64,000 nucleotides of DNA from Methylobacteriaceae bacterium. Lineage in GTDB: Bacteria > Pseudomonadota > Alphaproteobacteria > Rhizobiales > Beijerinckiaceae. The stretch covers positions 6,421 to 70,420 of the forward strand of contig JAXDNJ010000031.1 in NCBI GenBank assembly GCA_034669505.1. Reading direction: 5' to 3'. The notes under the pieces are model-generated. The model saw nothing but the letters and a program-made list of their open reading frames with translations. It ran no database searches and was not told where the DNA came from. How positions within the stretch are numbered: the stretch's first letter is position 1; the number at the start of each line of letters is the position of its first letter. Below are positions 1,638-56,771 of this stretch, in pieces. The position numbers and the translations under genes are program-made.

Positions 1638-1997
1638 TCATCTCAGCCGGTCGTGCGCTGCGGCGTCGACCCAAGTTCGCCATATTTGCTGGTTTGCGGT
1701 TAAAGACCGACGGATCGCCTCTTCTGGGCTCCATCGGTACAGATAAACAGATTTGATTATTGCGGCAACAAGATCGCTGCTCAAATGAATGCGTCTTAGA
1801 AATTCGAGCTCCGGCCCTTCCGTTTCGGCAAAGCGAGCGTTGGCACCTATCGCGACCTCGCTGTTGGGGTAGGCGCTGGCCCGTGTTGGCGTTTGCTCAG
1901 CGAGCAACGCCTTCCAGATGAGGTGATCGAATAACATGCGGTTTGGTGCGGTGCATGAGTCCGTTGTTGGCGCTATGCGACCGTGCCGAAGGGGCAA
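1638..1997 (-). CDS. Hypothetical protein (ORF only)
   Basis: 119-aa ORF with no recognisable motif. It is co-oriented with and downstream of the DUF5681-like remnant. Confidence 0.2.
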   Translation of the reverse strand: MPLRHGRIAPTTDSCTAPNRMLFDHLIWKALLAEQTPTRASAYPNSEVAIGANARFAETEGPELEFLRRIHLSSDLVAAIIKSVYLYRWSPEEAIRRSLTANQQIWRTWVDAAAHDRLR

Positions 1998-2131
1998 TGG
2001 ATCTTTTTTCTTCTTCGGATTGAGGGCTCTGAAGTGAATGTCCGAACGCGCATTCTCGCGGCGTAAAGCAGACCTTCCGCTCTCGGCCAGTAATGGGCGT
2101 GTCGTGAATGGCCGTTCTGCGCCAATAAGCT

Positions 2132-2829
2132 TCAGCGTTTTGATCGTTCTCCGATCTTATCCGCGATCATCGCACGCAACTTTTCGAATTGCATGCGTTC
2201 ATCGTCGATCTGGCCGCGCTGCTCCTCAGATCGAGCACGCTTCTGTTGCATCGTCAGAGCGGCGATATCGCGATCGAGTTCATCGACTTGGTCCCAGAGG
2301 CGATCCCAAGAGACTTTCTCTTCCGGGGCCATAGGGCCTTTGATCACGATGGTGCCTGTTGCCATATCGACGCTGATGTCCCCGAACGCGGAATCGGGTT
2401 CGGAACCTCCAATCCGAGCGCTTTGCACCGCGCAATTTCGCCTTGCCAGTACTTTCTACAGTCAAGTGCCTTGCCGAAATATTCGCGGTAAAGCGTGTTG
2501 TTTGCAGTTTCGGTCGTCGTCAGCAGCTCGGCAAAGAGCCGCTGCGCCCGGTGCTGACCACGAGCTGCATTGACGGCCATGGCACGCACGACCGCCTGCG
2601 CGATCGGGATGCTGATGCGCTTTTCGCCCTCATTGATCGTGATCGTCCGGCAGGCTTCGTCGAGAATGATGCCTTCAGCCGTTCCTCGTTGAGCGCGGGC
2701 CGCTTGTTCCTGGCGCCTCTCGGCCGTGTTCTCCAGAGGCGCGCCCCTTAAATGTTGCAAAGCTTGACGCATACGGCGATTGCCGGCATCTTCAAAAATC
2801 TGCTTTCGATGTCCGTCAGACGGACACAT
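2132..2829 (-). pseudogene. DUF5681-like protein (plasmid/phage-associated family), frameshifted
   Basis: Minus-strand ORFs 2344-2940 and 2132-2428 join into one protein if a 1-nt frame change near 2385-2395 is allowed (ALGLEVPNPIP | DSAFGDISVDMATGTIVIKGP). The block ITINEGEKRISIPIAQAVVRAMAVNAARGQHRAQRLFAELL matches my memory of DUF5681. ATG 2829 was chosen because the longer ORF runs into the dioxygenase gene. Confidence 0.55.
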
Positions 2830-2933
2830 GTGATTGCCACCGGGCCCATCCAATAGATAGCAGTCGGGCTGGAGAGCGGTCGTAAGCGCTACCGCATCTC
2901 TTGCAATCGCAAATGTAGCGGGAAGGAACGAAC

Positions 2934-4277
2934 ATGTCATCGCATGTCGATCGGCTGGTTGACGTCAAACAAGGCTTCATCAGCCGCGAGCTATTCGTCG
3001 ACGAGGATCTCTACAAAGAAGAGCTCGACAAGGTGTTCACCAGAGCCTGGCTCTTTGTCGGCCACGAAAGCCTTGTTCCCAATCCCGGAGATTTCTACAC
3101 ATCGCGCATGGGGGAGGAGTCGGTCATCCTCTGTCGTGACAAGAAGGGCGAGCTGCACGTCTTCCTAAATTCCTGTCGCCATCGTGGCATGAAAGTTTGC
3201 CGCTACGAGTCCGGCAATACGTCCCTGTTCACTTGCCCCTATCACAGCTGGACGTATACGACGGACGGAAGGCTGCAAGGCGTTCCACTGTACAGGACCC
3301 TTTACGACGGCGTTCTCGATCGCGAGGCGAACTCGCTCGTCTCAGTGGCCAAAATGGTCAACTACAAGGGAACGATCTGGGCCTCGTGGGACAAGGACGC
3401 TCCTGATTTTCTGACCTATCTGGGTGACGCGAAGATTCATCTCGACCAGGCGCTTGATTGCCGCGATGGCCGCGAGGGGGGGTCGGAAGTCATTGGTGTA
3501 CATAAATGGGTTTTCCCCGCGAATTGGAAGTTCGCCGCAGAAAATTTCCTCGGCGACACCTATCATAATCCGAGCCATCGTTCCGTCGATCTCATCGGCA
3601 TCGGGCCAAGTGCCGCCGCGGGCAAGAAGGGCCGCCGTGACGGTGAATTGGACAACGCGCAGCACGTCTGGATCAGCTTTCCGGAAGGACATGGCGTCCA
3701 CAGCGCGATCATGCCGGAAGCCAACGAATATTCGGAATCGTTTCTCGATAATCCGATTCTCGAGGAATATTTCCGGCACTGCTTCGAAGAGCGGAAGCGG
3801 CGTCTCGGCGAGCAGTCGCGCCTGATCCCGCATGTCGGCACGATCTTTCCCAATACCTCATATCACGGCCGACAGCCGCGCGGCCTGTGCGCATGGCATC
3901 CGCATAGCCCGACTTCGTGCGAGGGGTGGCGCTTCTTCCTGGTCGACAAGGACGCACCGGCCGAAGCCAAGGCGTATCTACGGCGCTATTACATGCGCTA
4001 TTCTGGTCCGGCCGGCATGACCGAGCAAGACGACATGGAGAATTGGCTCTATGCAACGGCTGCGAGTACGGGCACGGTCGCGCGGCGCTATCCCTTCAAC
4101 TATCAGCAATCGATGAATGCATTCACCACTGATCACCAGCTCGGGGGTGAGGTGAGCACGCAGATCACGGAGCAGATTGCGCGTGGTTTTTACAAGAGGT
4201 GGGCTTCCTATATGCGCGGCGCCAAATGGGACGAGCTGCTCGGCCATGACCAGCTGCGCAAAGAAGCCGCAGAATGA
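2934..4277 (+). CDS. Aromatic ring-hydroxylating dioxygenase, large (alpha) Rieske subunit
   Basis: Rieske motif CRHRGMKVCRYESGNTSLFTCPYHSW (CxH-x17-CxxH). Mononuclear iron region NFLGDTYHNPSHRS. ATGA overlap with the next gene. Confidence 0.92.
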   Translation: MSSHVDRLVDVKQGFISRELFVDEDLYKEELDKVFTRAWLFVGHESLVPNPGDFYTSRMGEESVILCRDKKGELHVFLNSCRHRGMKVCRYESGNTSLFTCPYHSWTYTTDGRLQGVPLYRTLYDGVLDREANSLVSVAKMVNYKGTIWASWDKDAPDFLTYLGDAKIHLDQALDCRDGREGGSEVIGVHKWVFPANWKFAAENFLGDTYHNPSHRSVDLIGIGPSAAAGKKGRRDGELDNAQHVWISFPEGHGVHSAIMPEANEYSESFLDNPILEEYFRHCFEERKRRLGEQSRLIPHVGTIFPNTSYHGRQPRGLCAWHPHSPTSCEGWRFFLVDKDAPAEAKAYLRRYYMRYSGPAGMTEQDDMENWLYATAASTGTVARRYPFNYQQSMNAFTTDHQLGGEVSTQITEQIARGFYKRWASYMRGAKWDELLGHDQLRKEAAE

Positions 4278-10874: not shown

Positions 10875-11153
10875 GTGAGGGGATATGCAGGCGACTTGTC
10901 CAATTTGTGGAAACCCCGCCGAGCGAGGAACGGATGCATCGCCGTCCACAGCGAAGCCGCCATCCGCGGTGGCGCTTCAAAGGAAGAGATTGCGGAAGCG
11001 CTTGGCGTCGCCGTTGCCATAAACGCCGGTGCGGCGCTCGTCTACTCGACGCGCGTGATGGATGCGGTCAGAGAATATCTGCACGAGGTAAGCACGACTA
11101 AGCCCAGTGCAACGTCGTCCGCGACGAGCAACGCAAGCTATATTTCAGGGTAA
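10875..11153 (+). pseudogene. Carboxymuconolactone decarboxylase (AhpD-like) family, C-terminal fragment
   Basis: GCIAVHSEAAIRGGASKEEIAEALGVAVAINAGAALVYSTRVMDAV is the conserved CMD core and C-terminus. The N-terminal half is not found in frame. Confidence 0.55.
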
Positions 11154-11200
11154 GACGGGCGTGCTTATTTTGCCGCAACGGCACACGACAGGAGTAGCTA

Positions 11201-12326
11201 ATGCAGGACCACGACCTGCAACCATGGGAGCAGCTGACGCGACGGCGTGTGCTGGGTGGAATTGGACTCGGCAGCCTGGCGCTAATATCCTCACCGGCAT
11301 TGGCGCAACAGACGGTCGATCTACGCGTGCCCGACGGTCCGAGTACGCGGAGAATCACCACATCGTATCCGCAAAAGGGCCGAATGATCTTGCAGCGTTG
11401 GAGCCCACCATGGCTTGAGACGCCCTTCGAAGTCTTCGACAATGGCGTGTTCACCCCAAACGACCAGCATTATGTCAGCTGGCACTGGGCGAACTTTCCT
11501 AGCGAAATTGATGTGGACAGCTTTCGTCTGACGGTGCGGGGCCAAGTCAATCAGACACTTTCGCTCTCGCTCAACGAAAGTTTGCAGGGCTTGCCGAGAG
11601 TCGATATCGCCGCGGTCGACCAATGCGCCGGCGCTTCTCGCATCTACGCCGTTCCACGCGTTGCCGGCGCTCAATGGGCAAACGGTTCGATGAGCAACGC
11701 AATCTGGACCGGTGTGCGTCTCATGGACGTTCTTGATCGTGCCGGTGTAAACCTAGTGCCATTCAAGTCCGCTTCGGTGGCCCGGACGAGCCCATAATTC
11801 CGGAGGCGCCGAAATTCCTAAAGTCGCTCACAATCGACCACGCTCGCGACGGTGAGGTGATGATCGCTTTTGCTATGAACGGCGAGCAACTTCCATCGTT
11901 GAATGGATTTCCGCTGCGGCTCGTTGTGCCCGGCTGGTGCGCGGTCTACTGGATCAAGATGCTGAACGACATCGAGGTGCTGGATCAACCCGACACCAAT
12001 TACTGGACGGCGACCGGCTACCGCGTACCCGATACCCCGCATAATACCTCAAGCGAGGGGATGCGGGATACAAGATGATGCCGGTGACCCGCAATGCTCC
12101 GCGGTCATCCATCACGAGTATCCACGACGGCGATAGCGTACCGGCGGGGACGCCGACTTCGGCTCGGGGCATTGCCTTTGGCGGCGATTGCGGCGTTGCC
12201 CGCGTTGATCTTTCGATCGATGGCGGCAAGAGCTGGCAACCGACAGAGCTCGGGGCCGACCAGGGGACATACGGGTTTCGGCAGTGGCAGACACACTTTA
12301 CGCTGCCTGAGCGCGGCGCGCGCTGA
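11201..12326 (+). pseudogene. Sulfite-oxidase-like molybdopterin oxidoreductase (SorA/YedY superfamily), at least two frameshifts and a truncated 3' end
   Basis: Tat signal TRRRVLGG. The protein is split over three frames: 11201-11797, about 11755-12078 (AIQVRFGGPDEPIIPEAPKFLKSLTIDHARDGEVMIAFAMNGEQLPSLNGFPLRLVVPGW) and 12075-12326 (MMPVTRNAPRS...GIAFGGDCGVARVDLSIDGGKSWQ). The frame changes lie near 11750-11760 and 12040-12075. Confidence 0.8.
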
Positions 12327-48898: not shown

Positions 48899-50914
48899 CT
48901 AGGTGCGCGTCGGCCAATGCCTGTCGCGGAACCAAGTGCGATAGTCCGAGGACATCGTGGCGCGCTGCGCTTGCGGCGCGTGCCGCTTGCAAGTCGCCGC
49001 TTCCTCACTGTTTTCCAAGGCACCCCAACGTATCTCGGCGCAGTCGTTCGGGTTATACGCCATTTCAAGGTCTGCTGCCCGTTCGATCACGTCCTTGAGA
49101 GACAATGTCCATTGCGAGCCGTCGCTGCGAGTATAGGAGAACTTACGCGAGGCAAGCTCAGTTGCGAGCACATCCCGTAACTCGCGCTTCACGTTCTCAA
49201 TGTTCTTGCCTCCCGGCGTCGCGTATCGGTCTGAGCGCCGCGCGAAGCGCTCAGGAAAATTCCGCAGGACATCGATCGCGATCAAAAGACGGAAATCGCG
49301 CGCCGGCGTGGAATAGTCTTCCCATGCGCCGCTGGTCTGGAAGATCGACGCGCCGTTCGGCATCGCGGTAACTGCAGCCTGCTTGTCCTGATATTTTCGT
49401 CCATTCTCGACCGAGGTGACGCGCGTCTTCACCTGCTCGTTGAGGCTGGTAATCGCATCCGTCATCGCCCGCACCGGATCCAGCGGCTCGGGCGACATCA
49501 CGTCATCCATGCGATCGTAGAAATCCTCGGCACTCATGTGCGCCTGTTCGAGGGAAAAGTCGCCGTAGTGCGGGTTTCTGCCGATTTCGGCATTGGTCAG
49601 CCGCCGCAACGGGCCATTTTTATCGCCGACGATCGGCCGGAAGTGCTTGAAGCCGGGCGTGCCGAGCCCGGGATTGTGCACGAACAGGAAGTTGCCGCGC
49701 CAGAAACGCTTGCGCGTAATCGACCCGTCGGGCTCGGCGTCGACGGCGAGAAAAACCCCGGGCGTCCCATCCAACTCCGGCACGCGATGCACCAGCATCA
49801 GCACGTGGCCGTAGGGGTCGGCATATACGGTTCCCGGGCGCAGCGCCTTTTGCGTCAGCGGGACGCTGTAGAAATCGGTGTTGTCGTCGTTCGCCGCGAC
49901 CCGCACCGCGCCGCTATGGACGACGTCGCCGACATCGCGCAGATATTCTGCGAATGTCGCCGGACGCTTCGGCTTCGGTGGCGGCGGCACGGCCGGACTT
50001 ACTGGCGCATCGGCCGGCTGCGCCTGCGCAAACAGCCCGAGAAAGTTTGCAGCCGGGGCGGCGGACGCGACCGCGACCGTGTTCGACGCCAAGTTCGACG
50101 CGACATCCTGTTCGGGCGGCGGGGCCGGACGCGTCGTCTCGGGATGCTCGATGTCGAACCATTGGTAACATGTGGGCGCCTTGCCGCCGCTGCCGCGCGA
50201 GCAATTCGCATATCCGAATGGTAGACCCATCTTGAAAGCGAAATAGGCGCGCAGGAAGTAGACGAAGTCGGCGCAATCGGGACGCAAGCTCAGCGTCATG
50301 GTGTCTTCGCCGCGACCGAGATAGTTGAACAGGAAATTGCGCGATTGATCGCGCAGCACTTCATGCCACACCTTCCACGATAGGTCCTGGTCGGGTGGGG
50401 CGTCGAAAAGCTTCTCGATCCATGCCGAGAACAACGATTCCGTTGTGCTGTTCCAGCTGTTGCGCACCTGCCAGATATGGCCGGCCGGCGTTCCCGGGGA
50501 CGCGGGCCTGCCCGCATTCACGACAATTTCGCGGGTGATGTTGCCGCATCCGGCGACCGCGTGGTCGAGCGCCAGATTTGCATGCCACGTCCCGGCGGCC
50601 GGCGCGGCGATCTCGGCGAACCAGGAATAAGGCCCGCCGCCGTGCCGCTCCGAGGATCTTGCCGCGATGCTGCCGTTGGGCGCGACCAGCGAGAGCGTCC
50701 CGCCGAGTGGCTTTTCCGCAACGACCATGACGCGCAACGGCGCGCCTTTCCACGGCGCAACCGGCGAGGGCAGAACCGTGAGATCGGCCGCCTCTCCGCA
50801 GGTGGCGGATAAAGCCGCCGCCGGCGAGTCTGTTGCCGATGCAGGCGAGACGACAAATCCGGCGACCGGTAACAAAGTCGCCGCGGCGACGGCAAACCAG
50901 CGTGCGCGAAGCAT
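48899..50914 (-). CDS. Large exported hypothetical protein (671 aa), possible transglutaminase-like Cys-His-Asp core
   Basis: Signal peptide MLRARWFAVAAATLLPVAGFVVSPASA. PDCADFVYFLRAYFAFKMGLPFGY (Cys214), then PYGHVLMLV (His370), then FLAVDAEPD (Asp392). A Pro/Ala-rich insert lies between the Cys and His blocks. Confidence 0.75.
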   Translation of the reverse strand: MLRARWFAVAAATLLPVAGFVVSPASATDSPAAALSATCGEAADLTVLPSPVAPWKGAPLRVMVVAEKPLGGTLSLVAPNGSIAARSSERHGGGPYSWFAEIAAPAAGTWHANLALDHAVAGCGNITREIVVNAGRPASPGTPAGHIWQVRNSWNSTTESLFSAWIEKLFDAPPDQDLSWKVWHEVLRDQSRNFLFNYLGRGEDTMTLSLRPDCADFVYFLRAYFAFKMGLPFGYANCSRGSGGKAPTCYQWFDIEHPETTRPAPPPEQDVASNLASNTVAVASAAPAANFLGLFAQAQPADAPVSPAVPPPPKPKRPATFAEYLRDVGDVVHSGAVRVAANDDNTDFYSVPLTQKALRPGTVYADPYGHVLMLVHRVPELDGTPGVFLAVDAEPDGSITRKRFWRGNFLFVHNPGLGTPGFKHFRPIVGDKNGPLRRLTNAEIGRNPHYGDFSLEQAHMSAEDFYDRMDDVMSPEPLDPVRAMTDAITSLNEQVKTRVTSVENGRKYQDKQAAVTAMPNGASIFQTSGAWEDYSTPARDFRLLIAIDVLRNFPERFARRSDRYATPGGKNIENVKRELRDVLATELASRKFSYTRSDGSQWTLSLKDVIERAADLEMAYNPNDCAEIRWGALENSEEAATCKRHAPQAQRATMSSDYRTWFRDRHWPTRT

Positions 50915-52346: not shown

Positions 52347-52679
52347 TTAATTTCTACAGGCAGCTTTTGCCCAGCGAAAACCGCATTCTCCTCCGGAACC
52401 ACCATAACCAGGAGTGATTCTGCATGGCCCAGCCCCGCATAAAGCGCTGCAAACCACCTGTGGACTGAAGCCGCTCGCCCCGCCACTGTAGCAGGCAAAA
52501 TGGCGAAATGGCGGAGACCGGGGATATGGATTGTAAGCCGGAGTACACCCAGCATTGCCCCAGCAAACATAAAACTCCGGATAGATAATGTCCTTGGGCT
52601 TTATCGGGTCAGCGGCGAATGTCGGGCCCGCAAGCGAGACTGTAGCTGAGATTAAAGCTAAGGCTTGCCAGTGCCGCAT
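52347..52679 (-). CDS. Small secreted Cys-rich hypothetical protein (110 aa, 8 Cys)
   Basis: GGAGG lies 7 nt upstream of ATG 52679. Signal peptide MRHWQALALISATVSLAGPTFA. Confidence 0.5.
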   Translation of the reverse strand: MRHWQALALISATVSLAGPTFAADPIKPKDIIYPEFYVCWGNAGCTPAYNPYPRSPPFRHFACYSGGASGFSPQVVCSALCGAGPCRITPGYGGSGGECGFRWAKAACRN

Positions 52680-52699
52680 ATTCCCGCCTCCACAGTACC

Positions 52700-53015
52700 T
52701 TTGAGGGAAAAGAACGTATCGACCAGTTCCGATCGGTGCAAGACAGGACCTCGTGGCCGGCATTGTGCGCCGTTCGAGCTTCTAGAGCGAGGCGCATTTG
52801 GCGAAGGTCAGCTTCACGACGTTCTTGTAGGTCTCGCCCGGTTCTGATCCCGGCGTGCTCCCACACGGCACCCCTCGCCACTTCCAATCCTCGACCACGT
52901 CCGGGTCGGCCTCTTTGATGAGAGTCCGGACTCCAGCCAGCGTTTCGCCCCGCCAATCGCTCAGTTCCTCGATTCGCGCATCGATCAGCTGAGAGGGAGA
53001 GTCTCCGCGTTGCAC
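52700..53015 (-). pseudogene. DUF1801 (YdhG-like) domain protein, multiply frameshifted
   Basis: One frame reads IDARIEELSDWRGETLAGVRTLIKEADPDVVEDWKWRGVP. A second frame continues VWEHAGI. The first frame resumes with GETYKNVVKLTFAKCASL and ends in a premature stop. Confidence 0.6.
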
Positions 53016-53297
53016 TTCTCGCTTTCTTCATCAGCGGGTCGCTCGCGGTCACATGACGTAATTGCTCGTCAGCATTTTGGCAGCACTGGACGGGCCGCCT
53101 TGGCGGGCGAGTGATGCACTCCGAAGTAGACCCCTTCTGCGCCAATTCCTCGGCGGAGAGACAAAATCGATCAACTGCAACAGTGCGTCGGAAGCCTACA
53201 GCGTCTGCGACCCCGACGAGAATGGCCGAAGGAGAGGAATTCGATTTTCATATTTTTGATAGGAGAATGCCTCCGGGTGTCGCTCTTCTATGTTTCG

Positions 53298-54725
53298 TCA
53301 CAAGATCTCCATTGTGATAACTTGCTCAGACGAAACTTGGCGCGCAATATCAAAATCTGGTTCGTCCCTGCGAAATTCGGCAAAGAAAAAATCCACAAGT
53401 GTCATCAGGTCGCTAGCATCCGCCGCCAACATGGCATCAATCACCGTTCTTCCCGTGGTCTGGACTCGGAGTATCGCCCTTCGCACCGCCAGTTCGTTGT
53501 TTCCGAATCCGGTCGCCACACGAACACTGAGGTGTTTCTCTAGCTGTTCCCGCGTTCCAATCAACCGATCATTCGGGAAGTCGACACGGATAGGTGCCGA
53601 AACCAGATCGTCGACATGATCTGCATACAAGTCTGGCCTCACATAGACATCTGTAGCCTCGAGGAAGTGCTTCGATAGCAACTCTTGAGCCTGGATAAAG
53701 CTGCCAAATGTTTGAGACAAATCTCCAAACTCGACTGGCAACGCCTTAAGTTTTTGCAAAAGTTCACGATTTCTCTGCAGTGCATCTCGAATCGACTCTG
53801 CAACAGGAGAACTGCTCAACTGTTCAGACCATCGCTCAAACAGGGATGCCACCGGTCTGTCAAATCTTGGCAGCCCTTCCTTCTCGAACAATGCAAAGAG
53901 TTTCGCAAAACGGGTCGTTGGGCAAGCTTCCCATCCCTCAACGGAGTAATTACCTAGAAGACTCCAACTAATTGCCGCGCTCAACAGCGCAATATCTATC
54001 AACTGTCCCTGCCGCTGGCAGAGAGCATACCAAGCCCTCAGAGGGAGCGTGTAGGCTGTCTTGTTTGCAAGGAGATAGTTTAAAAACAATTCAGAATGTT
54101 TGATACCAAAAACCGTGAACACGTTGTTGGCTTGCACCGCAATCGCAGAACCCTCAAAGAGATGATAAGGCTGATACACAATACCTGTTTCGTTCGGAGG
54201 CGCGGACACGAAGTCTTTTATGCGTCCATAGGCCTTCTCCGTCTCGACGAGAGCGCGGGTCCCTTCAGGGTCAAGATCGCAGTCGAATGAGATTGCTTCC
54301 CGGCGCAGCACCCTCGACCACTGATGGGCTAGAATGGTTCGCTCATTGTGTTGCATTCTTCGCCATTTAGGTAGCGGCACGGGTATGACGGAATTTTTCG
54401 CACGCAGCCGGCCGATTACCTGCACGCCGTTTACTGCGGCAAGCAGCCGTAGTCGAAGAATATGGTTACCATAGGGACTTAAGATAAAATCGTGGAAATG
54501 CCGCACTTCGTGCAACATTACTGTCCCAATCGAGAATGTATCAAAAGCTTCGTCAACACTTTCTTTAAGAGCCATGTTTCCAATACGGATCACCTCTTCG
54601 GGATCGCGATCCTGCGCATGGAATCGCCCAAACAGGTCCCAACTCTTAGGCCAGAAACGTAAGGTCACACCCAGGAATGTCGAGTCGAAACCGCCATAAT
54701 CATCTTGAATGATTGCCGTGTTCAT
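53298..54725 (-). CDS. Hypothetical 475-aa protein with HEXXH zinc-metallopeptidase motif
   Basis: The long ORF lies in a clearly AT-richer segment. VMLHEVRHFHD contains HEVRH (aa 72-76, nt 54498-54512). A candidate third-ligand Glu is in YHLFEGSA (aa 191). The ATGA start overlaps the stop of the upstream small gene. Confidence 0.8.
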   Translation of the reverse strand: MNTAIIQDDYGGFDSTFLGVTLRFWPKSWDLFGRFHAQDRDPEEVIRIGNMALKESVDEAFDTFSIGTVMLHEVRHFHDFILSPYGNHILRLRLLAAVNGVQVIGRLRAKNSVIPVPLPKWRRMQHNERTILAHQWSRVLRREAISFDCDLDPEGTRALVETEKAYGRIKDFVSAPPNETGIVYQPYHLFEGSAIAVQANNVFTVFGIKHSELFLNYLLANKTAYTLPLRAWYALCQRQGQLIDIALLSAAISWSLLGNYSVEGWEACPTTRFAKLFALFEKEGLPRFDRPVASLFERWSEQLSSSPVAESIRDALQRNRELLQKLKALPVEFGDLSQTFGSFIQAQELLSKHFLEATDVYVRPDLYADHVDDLVSAPIRVDFPNDRLIGTREQLEKHLSVRVATGFGNNELAVRRAILRVQTTGRTVIDAMLAADASDLMTLVDFFFAEFRRDEPDFDIARQVSSEQVITMEIL

Positions 54726-55081
54726 TTTGCTGCTTTGACGATATGCGTCAAAGCGTCTTGTACTTCTTCGGCTGTGAGGTCATCAGACGAGATCAGCTCA
54801 ATTCTACGCATCGGTGTTTGAATGATAATTCGTCTACCTCTGCCTCCTCTCAGTAGGTCAAAAATTTTCTTGGCCAGTATGGTGACCCCGACGGCGCCTT
54901 TAGTAATGGCCACCCAAGACGCGACCTCGGCGAGGCCGAACTTAAGGTTGGTTGGATCCTTTTCTATTCCGTACCTCTCAACCTGTATTTCTTCAGCGAA
55001 TTGCTTCGAATATTCGTTAAGCTCGTCCATCTGCTCCTTAGCGCCTAATACTTTGATTTGAACTTCATCCATGACCGTCAT
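54722..55081 (-). CDS. Small protein (119 aa) resembling EACC1 (effector-associated constant component 1)
   Basis: AGGAGA lies about 7 nt upstream of ATG 55081. The layout is an acidic N-terminus (QMDELNEY), a central hydrophobic segment AEVASWVAITKGAVGVTILAKKIF, the basic patch RGGRGRR, then IIIQTPMRRIELISSDDLTAEEVQDAL. Only the last 360 nt of track ORF 54722-56365 are real. Confidence 0.7.
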   Translation of the reverse strand: MTVMDEVQIKVLGAKEQMDELNEYSKQFAEEIQVERYGIEKDPTNLKFGLAEVASWVAITKGAVGVTILAKKIFDLLRGGRGRRIIIQTPMRRIELISSDDLTAEEVQDALTHIVKAAK

Positions 55082-55477
55082 AATCAGGTCTCCTGTATGC
55101 CTTGCGAGGCACCAAATTGGACCAACCGTTAGCAAACTCCAAGCGTCGGGTGGCTTAGCAGGTCGTGGTCTGCAACGCGTAACCGGGTTAGCCGTGTCCT
55201 TGCTCCTCAACTCACGGGCAGGAAAGGACGCACCGACTGCCACGGAAGGCCACCTTGACATAGTCGTGAAGCAATGGACGCCGAGGAGCCTGCCCTCGCC
55301 ATCGACTCCGCAAGCGGCGAGTTTGACCGCCTGGTGGAGGCCGGGGACGGTCACCACGATGAGTGCGCGATGCGACGCCAGCCTCCTGTTTCCAGTCGGG
55401 ATGGCCGCGGTATCGGCCTGCACGACGCCTCGCCGCGATGATAAAGCTGTCAGGTGAAACAAGCAGACAATTCCGCG

Positions 55478-56335
55478 ATGTCCCCCGCTCTCACCTATGC
55501 CGACGCGCACCACCGCGCCGCCGCTTTGCTGGCAGACGCCGGCATCGAGACGCCGAAGCGCGATGCGCGCGTGCTGCTCTGCCAAGCGGCTGATATCGAT
55601 CACGCCGCGCTGTTGCGCGATCCCGATGCGCGGCTCGGCGAGGAGGCGGCGGCGCGGCTGCAAGCCTTTGTCGAACGGCGGCTCCAGCGCGAGCCGGTGT
55701 CGCGCATTCTTGGCCGGCGCGAATTCTGGGATCTCTCGCTGCGCATCACCCCCGACGTGCTCGACCCGCGTGCCGATACGGAGACGCTGGTTGCCGCCGC
55801 GCTCGAGACGCTGAGAGATCGTCGCAGCGACCCGCTGCGCATCCTCGATCTCGGCACCGGCTCCGGCGCACTGCTTTGCGCGCTGCTGAGTGAATTTCCG
55901 CGCGCCTTGGGGATCGGCGTGGATCAACAGGAACCTGCCTGCCGGATCGCGCGGGAAAATCTCGCCGCTTGCGGCCTTGCCGGCCGCGGCGCCGTTCTCC
56001 GCGGCGACTGGGGCGCGGCGCTCGCCGGCGGCTTCGATCTCGTCGTTGCGAATCCGCCCTACATCGCCTCCGGCGCAATCGGGGCGCTCGCCCCCGAAGT
56101 CCGCGATCACGATCCCCGTGCCGCCCTCGACGGCGGCCCGGATGGGCTCGCCGCCTATCGCGCACTGGCCGCCGATCTCGGCCGCCTCTCGGCGCCGGAC
56201 GGAGTGGCCATCGTCGAAATCGGCCACGACCAGGCCGAATCGGCGCCCGCCTGCTTCCGGCAGGCCGGCTGGGGCTCGATCTCGCTGAAGCGCGACCTCG
56301 AAAACCAGCCGCGCGCGCTGATTTTGCGGCGATGA
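55478..56335 (+). CDS. prmC: Peptide chain release factor N5-glutamine methyltransferase
   Basis: SAM motif ILDLGTGSGAL and catalytic VVANPPYI. The start is ATG 55478 or GTG 55454. Confidence 0.93.
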   Translation: MSPALTYADAHHRAAALLADAGIETPKRDARVLLCQAADIDHAALLRDPDARLGEEAAARLQAFVERRLQREPVSRILGRREFWDLSLRITPDVLDPRADTETLVAAALETLRDRRSDPLRILDLGTGSGALLCALLSEFPRALGIGVDQQEPACRIARENLAACGLAGRGAVLRGDWGAALAGGFDLVVANPPYIASGAIGALAPEVRDHDPRAALDGGPDGLAAYRALAADLGRLSAPDGVAIVEIGHDQAESAPACFRQAGWGSISLKRDLENQPRALILRR

Positions 56336-56771
56336 ACGCCGCAATTCCTGTGGCAAATCAACCACGGGGCAAAATAATCCCCGAATACTCCCCCTGCCCG
56401 CCTTGGCGGCGGGCGAGCGATCGTCTATGTCTTAGGGCGAATACCACTCGCCTTAAGCGCACTTGGGTGTCCAAGGATGCGGCGCGGCGATGGAAGCTCC
56501 CAGATCGCGATTCGTTAGCCGTAGATCAGGGTGCTGAGCTCCTGCCTTGTTGATGAGCGCGTGGCGCGCTGAATGAGGCTTTGCTTGAAGTCCCCGGGCC
56601 GTACGGAGAGGTCTTGGGGATAGTGGCCGCGGCAATCGCCCGGCCCATGAACAGTCCGGCCGGAGACTATTGGCCCGTTCGAGCCCGAAATGCTCAGCCC
56701 ACCGGCCGGAAGCCGGTCCGCGCACAAGCGGACGGTGAACCGCGAGAGATGATATCAATTAAGGATCATCG

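Follow-up and report, generated by a model that had tools for sequence, protein, structure and literature searches.

A laterally acquired two-gene cassette in a Methylobacteriaceae genome pairs a probable EACC1 homologue with an unclassified HExxH protein

The 64,000-nucleotide stretch of a Methylobacteriaceae bacterium analyzed here (the window; contig JAXDNJ010000031.1) carries a compact cassette of two minus-strand genes, a small gene of 119 aa followed by a large gene of 475 aa, both present in the open reading frame (ORF) list of the window. The ATG of the large gene (54725-54723) overlaps the TGA of the small gene (54724-54722), and the small gene has its own Shine-Dalgarno sequence; the coordinates, the ATGA overlap and the AGGAGA site given in a first-pass annotation, made by a model from the sequence, were all reproduced. 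A scan for promoters and terminators returned nothing exceeding shuffle expectation. Comparison with homologous loci indicates that the small protein is very probably a divergent homologue of EACC1, a family known as the partner of caspase-type proteases, and that the large protein belongs to a widespread family with an invariant HExxH motif that may supply the protease in place of the caspase. The cassette and its parts are as follows.

54722..55081, minus strand: small gene, 119 aa, distantly EACC1-like, predicted latent pore-forming effector (from the ORF, its homologues, hhalign and AlphaFold2)
54926..54964, minus strand: small-gene codons 40-52 (EKDPTNLKFGLAE), conserved inter-domain linker, predicted protease recognition/cleavage region (from conservation, model confidence and alignment with KrEACC1)
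53298..54725, minus strand: large gene, 475 aa, unclassified HExRHxHD protein whose C-terminal domain is variable and beta-rich, predicted to be a Zn-dependent activating peptidase (from the ORF, family alignment and AlphaFold2)
54489..54512, minus strand: large-gene codons 72-79, HEVRHFHD, invariant metal-binding-type motif (from sequence and family alignment)
54153..54155, minus strand: codon of E191, putative gluzincin-like third metal ligand (from invariance and a predicted helix)
54722..54725, minus strand: ATGA stop/start overlap, indicating translational coupling (from sequence)
55089..55094, minus strand: Shine-Dalgarno sequence AGGAGA, 7 nt ahead of the small gene's ATG at 55081 (from sequence)
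53000..55200, unstranded: low-GC island of ~2.2 kb with the gene pair as its sole content (from a GC scan)

Searches of Pfam, NCBIfam, PADLOC and PHROGs with the large protein gave no match, even with the cut-off relaxed to E <= 10. Word-indexed homologue searches, one of them using a 130-sequence profile as query, gave just 4-5 relatives; the family came within reach only through an exhaustive HMMER search. With a cut-off of E <= 1e-3 this search collected at least 328 cluster representatives, 97 of them at E <= 1e-30. Nearly all members are 460-550 aa long and match end to end, indicating a single-architecture family, and the C-terminal ~100 residues form its variable part, since many remote homologues align only to about residue 385. 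The exact HEVRH noticed near the N-terminus in the first-pass annotation lies at residues 72-76, and every homologue with an intact N-terminus keeps the HExxH within the longer signature HE-x-[RK]-H-[FY]-H-D. Columns H72, E73, H76, D79, P117, E191 and R272 are invariant in an alignment of 130 sequences, with R75, H78, W121 and Q198 nearly so. E191 is the Glu of an LFEGSA segment that had been guessed to be a possible downstream ligand, and it is invariant in 130/130 and 100/100 aligned homologues. The HExxH and the guessed Glu thus form the core of the family, as both are unchanged among 130 homologues.

Supplied with the 130-sequence alignment, AlphaFold2 modeled the large protein as mostly helical (predicted local distance difference test score (pLDDT) 95.7, predicted template modeling score (pTM) 0.94), placing HExxH in a helix spanning residues 57-82 and E191 in a helix spanning residues 186-206, with short conserved strands at 11-12, 20-23 and 113-116 and a beta-rich C-terminal domain from residue 378. 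Gluzincins (clan MA) combine HExxH with a downstream Glu, and the modeled arrangement resembles theirs in setting the motif in a long helix and the invariant Glu in a later one; a substrate-binding edge might be built from the short conserved strands near the N-terminus (G11, F13, G19). Unlike gluzincins, the large protein has a spacing of 115 residues between HExxH and Glu, an HExRH[FY]HD signature that we could assign to no family, and neither a Pfam or NCBIfam peptidase match nor a Foldseek match to a solved zincin. The initial impression that it resembles no peptidase family that can be named agrees with both the sequence and the Foldseek searches, and scanning 100 family members one by one against Pfam gave no recurrent family. 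From the motif and by analogy with EACC1-protease pairs, we infer that the large protein is a Zn-dependent peptidase.

Several weak resemblances of the large protein were set aside. Designed helical bundles returned by a profile search of PDB sequences (E > 0.1) were rejected as helical-composition noise. A di-iron ExxH site, raised by low-ranked NrdF/ferritin-like Foldseek matches (E 1.4-2.8), was dropped as insignificant, and an HD-domain reading of the H78-D79 doublet was dropped because it had no structural match.

The two genes travel together. Among 50 loci fetched for pair analysis, a hidden Markov model of the small gene detected a homologue directly upstream of the large gene and on the same strand in 45, and in 46-47 after one iteration. 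The remaining loci also have an upstream ORF, which in three of the four inspected by eye (L045, L047 and L050) shows the same layout; the 187-aa ORF upstream in L049 looks somewhat different from the usual small gene. Co-occurrence, counted as an upstream small gene or ORF, therefore extends to 50/50 loci. The junction is tight, with a 4-nt overlap in 14/45 loci, a 1-nt overlap in 4/45 and about 36/45 falling between -23 and +17 nt. In a lineage survey of 47 genome loci the pair spanned about ten phyla, with representatives in Myxococcota, Acidobacteriota, Ignavibacteriales, Omnitrophota, Planctomycetota, Bacteroidota and Actinomycetota as well as alpha-, beta-, gamma- and delta-proteobacteria. 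Its phyletic distribution is patchy, its insertion sites vary, and the small-family proteins are annotated as hypothetical throughout. An all-against-all comparison of flanking ORFs revealed no conserved third gene; SelO, found downstream at some loci, was rejected as a component since it recurs only in syntenic, closely related Nitrosospira genomes.

Individual loci showed further variation. In L001, the closest metagenomic relative (79% identity), a frameshift splits the large gene (1882-3313) into ORFs of 178 and 300 aa, reflecting either a pseudogene or a sequencing error; immediately downstream of the cassette is a PIN-domain (VapC-like) gene, itself preceded by a small partner gene. A Rhodospirillales metagenome-assembled genome carries an inactivated copy (L012, 921-3674) in which an insert of ~1.1 kb interrupts the large gene, so that model positions 5-404 fall in 921-2147 and 402-497 in 3303-3674. 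Variovorax provides the most divergent member (L049, 5186-7950), which has a large protein of 728 aa and an upstream ORF with a Gly/Ala-rich hydrophobic stretch, and may be a variant architecture. At L002, a 336-aa ORF (11028-12038) directly downstream of the pair has no Pfam match and no counterpart in the other loci.

EACC1 genes sit 5' of a caspase-type protease gene, and the protein has been described as a central hydrophobic segment holding a small-residue patch, flanked by alpha+beta elements (PMC7159879). The partner protease cuts KrEACC1 at a site modeled at Asp49, between an autoinhibitory N-terminal unit and a C-terminal fragment that alone is toxic, permeabilizes liposomes and forms pores, experiments that identify EACC1 as the killing effector and the protease as its activator (bioRxiv 10.1101/2025.11.14.688446). 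An indexed search found three close relatives of our small protein and no more. For neither protein of the cassette did Pfam, NCBIfam, PADLOC or PHROGs yield a significant match, and weak matches to APH(3'') and phrog_37102 were dismissed as chance. When 46 small-family members were scanned against 24,736 Pfam families, EACC1 (PF19953) emerged as the top recurrent family, matching 7/46 members below threshold with a best E of 7e-4; the gathering threshold is 23.6 bits, and KrEACC1 itself scores 28.2 bits. These sub-threshold matches are colinear (for example, residues 16-113 of the L034 protein correspond to model positions 7-106 of 107), and they cover the same region of the model that KrEACC1 matches.

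A profile-profile comparison gave a stronger signal. KrEACC1 was taken from the supplement of bioRxiv 10.1101/2025.11.14.688446, and tblastn supplied two further genuine EACC1-caspase pairs, on a Streptomyces plasmid (L051) and a Ralstonia megaplasmid (L052). Alignment of the small-family profile with these three proteins by hhalign gave a probability of 88% and an E of 3.2e-6 over 105 columns, running near end to end on both sides. The real score of 38.8 compares with 10.3 +/- 1.8 (maximum 16.8) for 200 column shuffles, 14.1 +/- 2.9 (maximum 23.2) for 200 block shuffles and 13.4 for reversed sequences. The small protein is thus very likely a divergent EACC1 homologue despite failing the Pfam threshold, and the EACC1 likeness noted in the first-pass annotation is borne out by the full-length hhalign alignment and the recurrent weak Pfam matches, not by a direct Pfam match.

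The AlphaFold2 model of the small protein (38 sequences, pLDDT 86.3) has the order beta-alpha-beta, loop, beta-alpha-beta-beta-alpha, with beta1 at 6-14, alpha1 at 15-28, beta2 at 32-39, a lower-confidence loop at 40-52, beta3 at 53-61, alpha2 at 62-78, beta4 at 84-88, beta5 at 93-97 and alpha3 at 104-118. Foldseek returned only generic ferredoxin-like neighbors of this model (the EBNA1 DNA-binding domain, PII/SbtB and HPPK; E ~4e-3, template modeling score (TM) 0.4-0.5), which were set aside as uninformative. The loop has the lowest pLDDT inside the fold, ~72, and together with beta3 it forms the most conserved block of the family (D42, T44, L46, F48, G49, L50, E52 and A54), with D42 kept in 76% of members, L46 in 74% and G49 in 63%. 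It aligns with the KrEACC1 region that holds the Asp49 cleavage site: hhalign places D49 of KrEACC1 opposite E52, and an alternative register drawn by eye places W50-G51 opposite F48-G49. By analogy, cleavage of the small protein would fall within this linker.

The two sides of the linker also correspond in the two families. The window protein is 119 aa long and KrEACC1 114 aa; the N-terminal fragment has a charge of -5 in both, and the C-terminal fragment +3 and +2, respectively. An acidic N-terminal part is found in 93% of small-family members. A hydrophobic stretch at residues 50-77 contains a small-residue patch, G62-A63-x-G65, and in both families such a patch in the hydrophobic segment is followed by a basic one, LRGGRGRR here and WL[RQ]RR in EACC1. 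The RGGRGRR patch singled out on first reading is present at residues 78-84; its basic character alone, not its sequence, is kept in homologues.

The gene pair is compositionally foreign to its surroundings. The GC content of the small gene is 0.47 and that of the large gene 0.50, compared to 0.61 for the window and 0.70 for prmC, and at third codon positions (GC3) the values of 0.51 and 0.52 lie under the 0.74-0.79 of five neighboring genes. In a sliding-window scan the pair sat in the 2-kb stretch of lowest GC in the window (53101-55100), and counts of three 60-nt lines that had been made by hand (25/60, 25/60 and 46/60 G+C) proved exact. The closest alphaproteobacterial relatives of the cassette are likewise at ~0.50 GC within hosts of ~0.65 GC, indicating recent lateral spread of this clade. 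Foreign composition both here and in these relatives supports horizontal acquisition of the pair, as had been proposed. The absence of a nearby NTPase or integrase was likewise confirmed in the window, where no tRNA was found either, and the cassette borders showed no flanking direct or inverted repeats. A tblastn search of plasmids with the large protein gave no match.

Neither protein matched any model in PADLOC-DB 2.0 at E <= 10, and links to defense genes come from a minority of flanking regions in other genomes. These contain mobile-element or defense genes, among them resolvases, DDE and rve transposases, RepA, two type I methylases, MADS components, AbiEii and a PD-T4-6 kinase; a few PADLOC matches lie in these flanks. 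Matches to AriA (PARIS) in the flanks were attributed to ordinary ABC-transporter ATPases that also match AAA_21. In three divergent members the immediate upstream neighbor, in the same orientation, encodes a conflict-type protein: a NACHT-NCAB2 STAND NTPase in L050 (1038-7068), a Roc-COR GTPase in L054 (4364-9470), where a type I HsdR and a phage integrase are nearby, and a protein with an Mrr-like nuclease domain in L045 (4383-7590). These loci may be three-gene versions with a dedicated sensor.

Taken with the experiments on EACC1, these observations lead us to lean toward an explanation in which the HExxH protein takes the place that a caspase has in classical EACC1 systems, cleaves the linker at residues 40-52 and releases a membrane-permeabilizing C-terminal fragment. 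The cleavage model is proposed from the homology of the small protein to EACC1 and from a gene order analogous to that of EACC1-protease pairs. The small protein would be made as a soluble, autoinhibited ferredoxin-like monomer whose acidic N-terminal beta-alpha-beta unit (1-39) packs on the hydrophobic beta3/alpha2 and the C-terminal hairpin, masking both. The co-translated large protein would be a Zn-dependent peptidase of a new family, with catalytic H72-E73-x-x-H76 plus E191, and its more variable C-terminal ~100 residues are a candidate regulatory or sensing domain. Upon a trigger, which might be phage infection or another stress, the peptidase would cut the exposed conserved linker, and the freed fragment (roughly 48/53 to 119; ~67-72 aa, net charge +3) would oligomerize and permeabilize the membrane, so that the cell is killed or arrested, as in abortive infection.

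This explanation keeps much of what the first-pass annotation proposed, a metalloprotease-based toxin or defense module: the pair, the EACC1 link, the HExxH motif and the foreign origin all stand, and the roles are probably reversed, with the small protein as the effector. The metalloprotease itself is unlikely to be the toxin, because in the EACC1 experiments the small protein kills and the protease activates it. Overall that interpretation is supported on each of the four points where it had said it could fail, as the small protein does resemble EACC1 in profile comparison, the HExxH is conserved among homologues, the two genes co-occur, and the large protein matches no well-known housekeeping peptidase family.

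Likeness to the EACC1-caspase system (Kaur et al. 2020, eLife, PMC7159879; Evans et al. 2025, bioRxiv 10.1101/2025.11.14.688446; PF19953) extends from gene layout to protein anatomy. In both, a 5' gene of ~115 aa precedes a larger gene with a protease-type motif, a layout shared by the genuine pairs from Streptomyces and Ralstonia, and the small protein is colinear with EACC1 in the profile-profile alignment, both having an acidic N-terminal unit and a conserved linker, a hydrophobic segment in which small residues form a patch, a basic patch, and a beta hairpin at the C-terminus. The differences lie mainly in the partner, which here is an unrelated, unclassified HExxH protein without the caspase His/Cys dyad and without an N-terminal caspase or cNMP cyclase. 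Whereas the caspase partner of EACC1 carries roughly 50 alternative C-terminal domains (PMC7159879), the HExxH partner has one fixed architecture of ~480 aa, and its pair is broadly distributed rather than mainly actinobacterial. In PMC7159879 and bioRxiv 10.1101/2025.11.14.688446, EACC1 is described only with cysteine proteases, and the latter source makes no mention of metalloprotease, metallopeptidase, HExxH or zinc.

Several results weigh against this explanation. The small protein of the window gave no match to Pfam EACC1 (PF19953) at E <= 10, and the hhalign probability for EACC1 is 88% rather than above 95%. A PDB-sequence profile search with the large protein returned no zincin, and its model had no Foldseek neighbor in PDB or BFVD at E <= 0.001 (best E 0.2-0.4, TM < 0.2); as no peptidase fold or family was recognized, the peptidase assignment rests on a short motif and on analogy. 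The cassette contains no recognizable sensor domain. Its flanks in the window are housekeeping genes (prmC and DUF4167), and elsewhere they are heterogeneous and mostly metabolic, making for a weak defense-island context overall.

The same gene anatomy could also describe a toxin-antitoxin (TA) or toxin-inhibitor pair, in which the large HExxH enzyme is the toxin, as the first-pass annotation emphasized, and the small protein, encoded upstream and translated along with it, serves as inhibitor or antitoxin. An ATGA overlap between a small first gene and a larger second one is an arrangement typical of type II TA operons; the cassette is mobile and foreign in composition, and a VapBC-like pair adjoins it in L001. 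We consider this unlikely, as the small protein has no DNA-binding antitoxin domain, is modeled as ferredoxin-like and is homologous to EACC1, itself a toxic effector, and 475 aa is large for a TA toxin; neither protein matched a type II TA family in Pfam, NCBIfam or PADLOC. A role outside conflict, with the large protein as a non-proteolytic metal-dependent enzyme or metal sensor and the small one as a ferredoxin-like (PII/ACT-like) regulatory or chaperone subunit, would accommodate the absence of a zincin or other known fold, the generic ferredoxin-like and PII-like structural neighbors of the small model and the mostly metabolic or housekeeping genomic neighbors. It appears improbable given that the specific similarity to the EACC1 profile is well over controls and that the patchy phyletic distribution, foreign composition and varying insertion sites are typical of conflict genes; the disrupted copies in L001 and L012 and the NACHT or Roc-COR neighbors of divergent members also speak against it.

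EACC1 homology and conservation of the pair fit equally well with release by other means, in which the HExxH protein, acting as sensor or as sequestering partner, holds the EACC1-type effector inactive until a trigger and its motif binds metal structurally, and no peptidase fold was recognized that would tell against this. However, the catalytic-type Glu E73 is invariant, and structural metal sites need no such Glu; with characterized EACC1 modules all using proteolysis (bioRxiv 10.1101/2025.11.14.688446), release of this kind seems very unlikely.

With cleavage by the HExxH protein as the preferred explanation, the cassette probably represents a bacterial suicide or anti-phage module in a variant not described before, and what would be new is an EACC1-type effector whose protease is replaced by an unclassified HExxH family. 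More broadly, and tentatively, a new metallopeptidase family with a fold unlike solved structures may have displaced the caspase in EACC1-type systems, giving a minimal, sensor-less cassette for proteolysis-gated pore formation and abortive infection that spreads laterally among at least ten bacterial phyla and everywhere bears the annotation 'hypothetical protein'. A dominant logic now emerging in prokaryotic immunity is that of death effectors gated by proteases, which has parallels to the caspase-gasdermin pathway. The logic proposed here, in which an adjacent protease removes the inhibitory part of a small latent membrane-active protein, is like that of bacterial gasdermins with their proteases and of Pepco/Trypco with trypsin-like proteases, but no sequence or structural relation to these was found and the protease class differs. 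If the proposal is true, an unrelated metal-dependent protease can license EACC1-type effectors, a new peptidase family and probably a new fold are added, and a compact two-gene system becomes available for dissecting protease, sensor and effector without a large NTPase. It also assigns a testable function to an unannotated family of at least 328 protein clusters.

A spurious ORF obscures the small gene in public annotation. A GTG-started ORF of 547 aa (54722-56365, minus strand) crosses prmC in antisense and has the 119-aa small gene as its final part, and it is the recorded gene call in the single public assembly holding this sequence. The 119-aa protein is absent from a collection of 15 billion proteins because the gene caller chose this ORF, a case showing that gene callers can hide a small effector by swallowing it into a spurious reading frame.

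The genes around the cassette in the window are ordinary, comprising prmC (divergent, 55454-56335), a DUF4167 protein, a periplasmic binding protein, a PhnB-like protein and a DUF1801 fragment. The DUF1801 gene (52782-53015, minus strand), just downstream of the cassette, is apparently truncated, encoding 77 aa that cover model positions 2-44 of 85; it is overlapped by a 178-aa ORF in another frame and has probably decayed. Farther away, a minus-strand gene at 48899-50914 encodes a 671-aa protein with an apparent N-terminal signal peptide and no Pfam family. A 138-aa ORF at 52347-52763 (minus strand), which has no Pfam match, reads from internal Met29 like a small, Cys/Gly-rich secreted protein behind a signal peptide, and with its unusually low GC3 of 0.50 it may be a second foreign patch beside the cassette.

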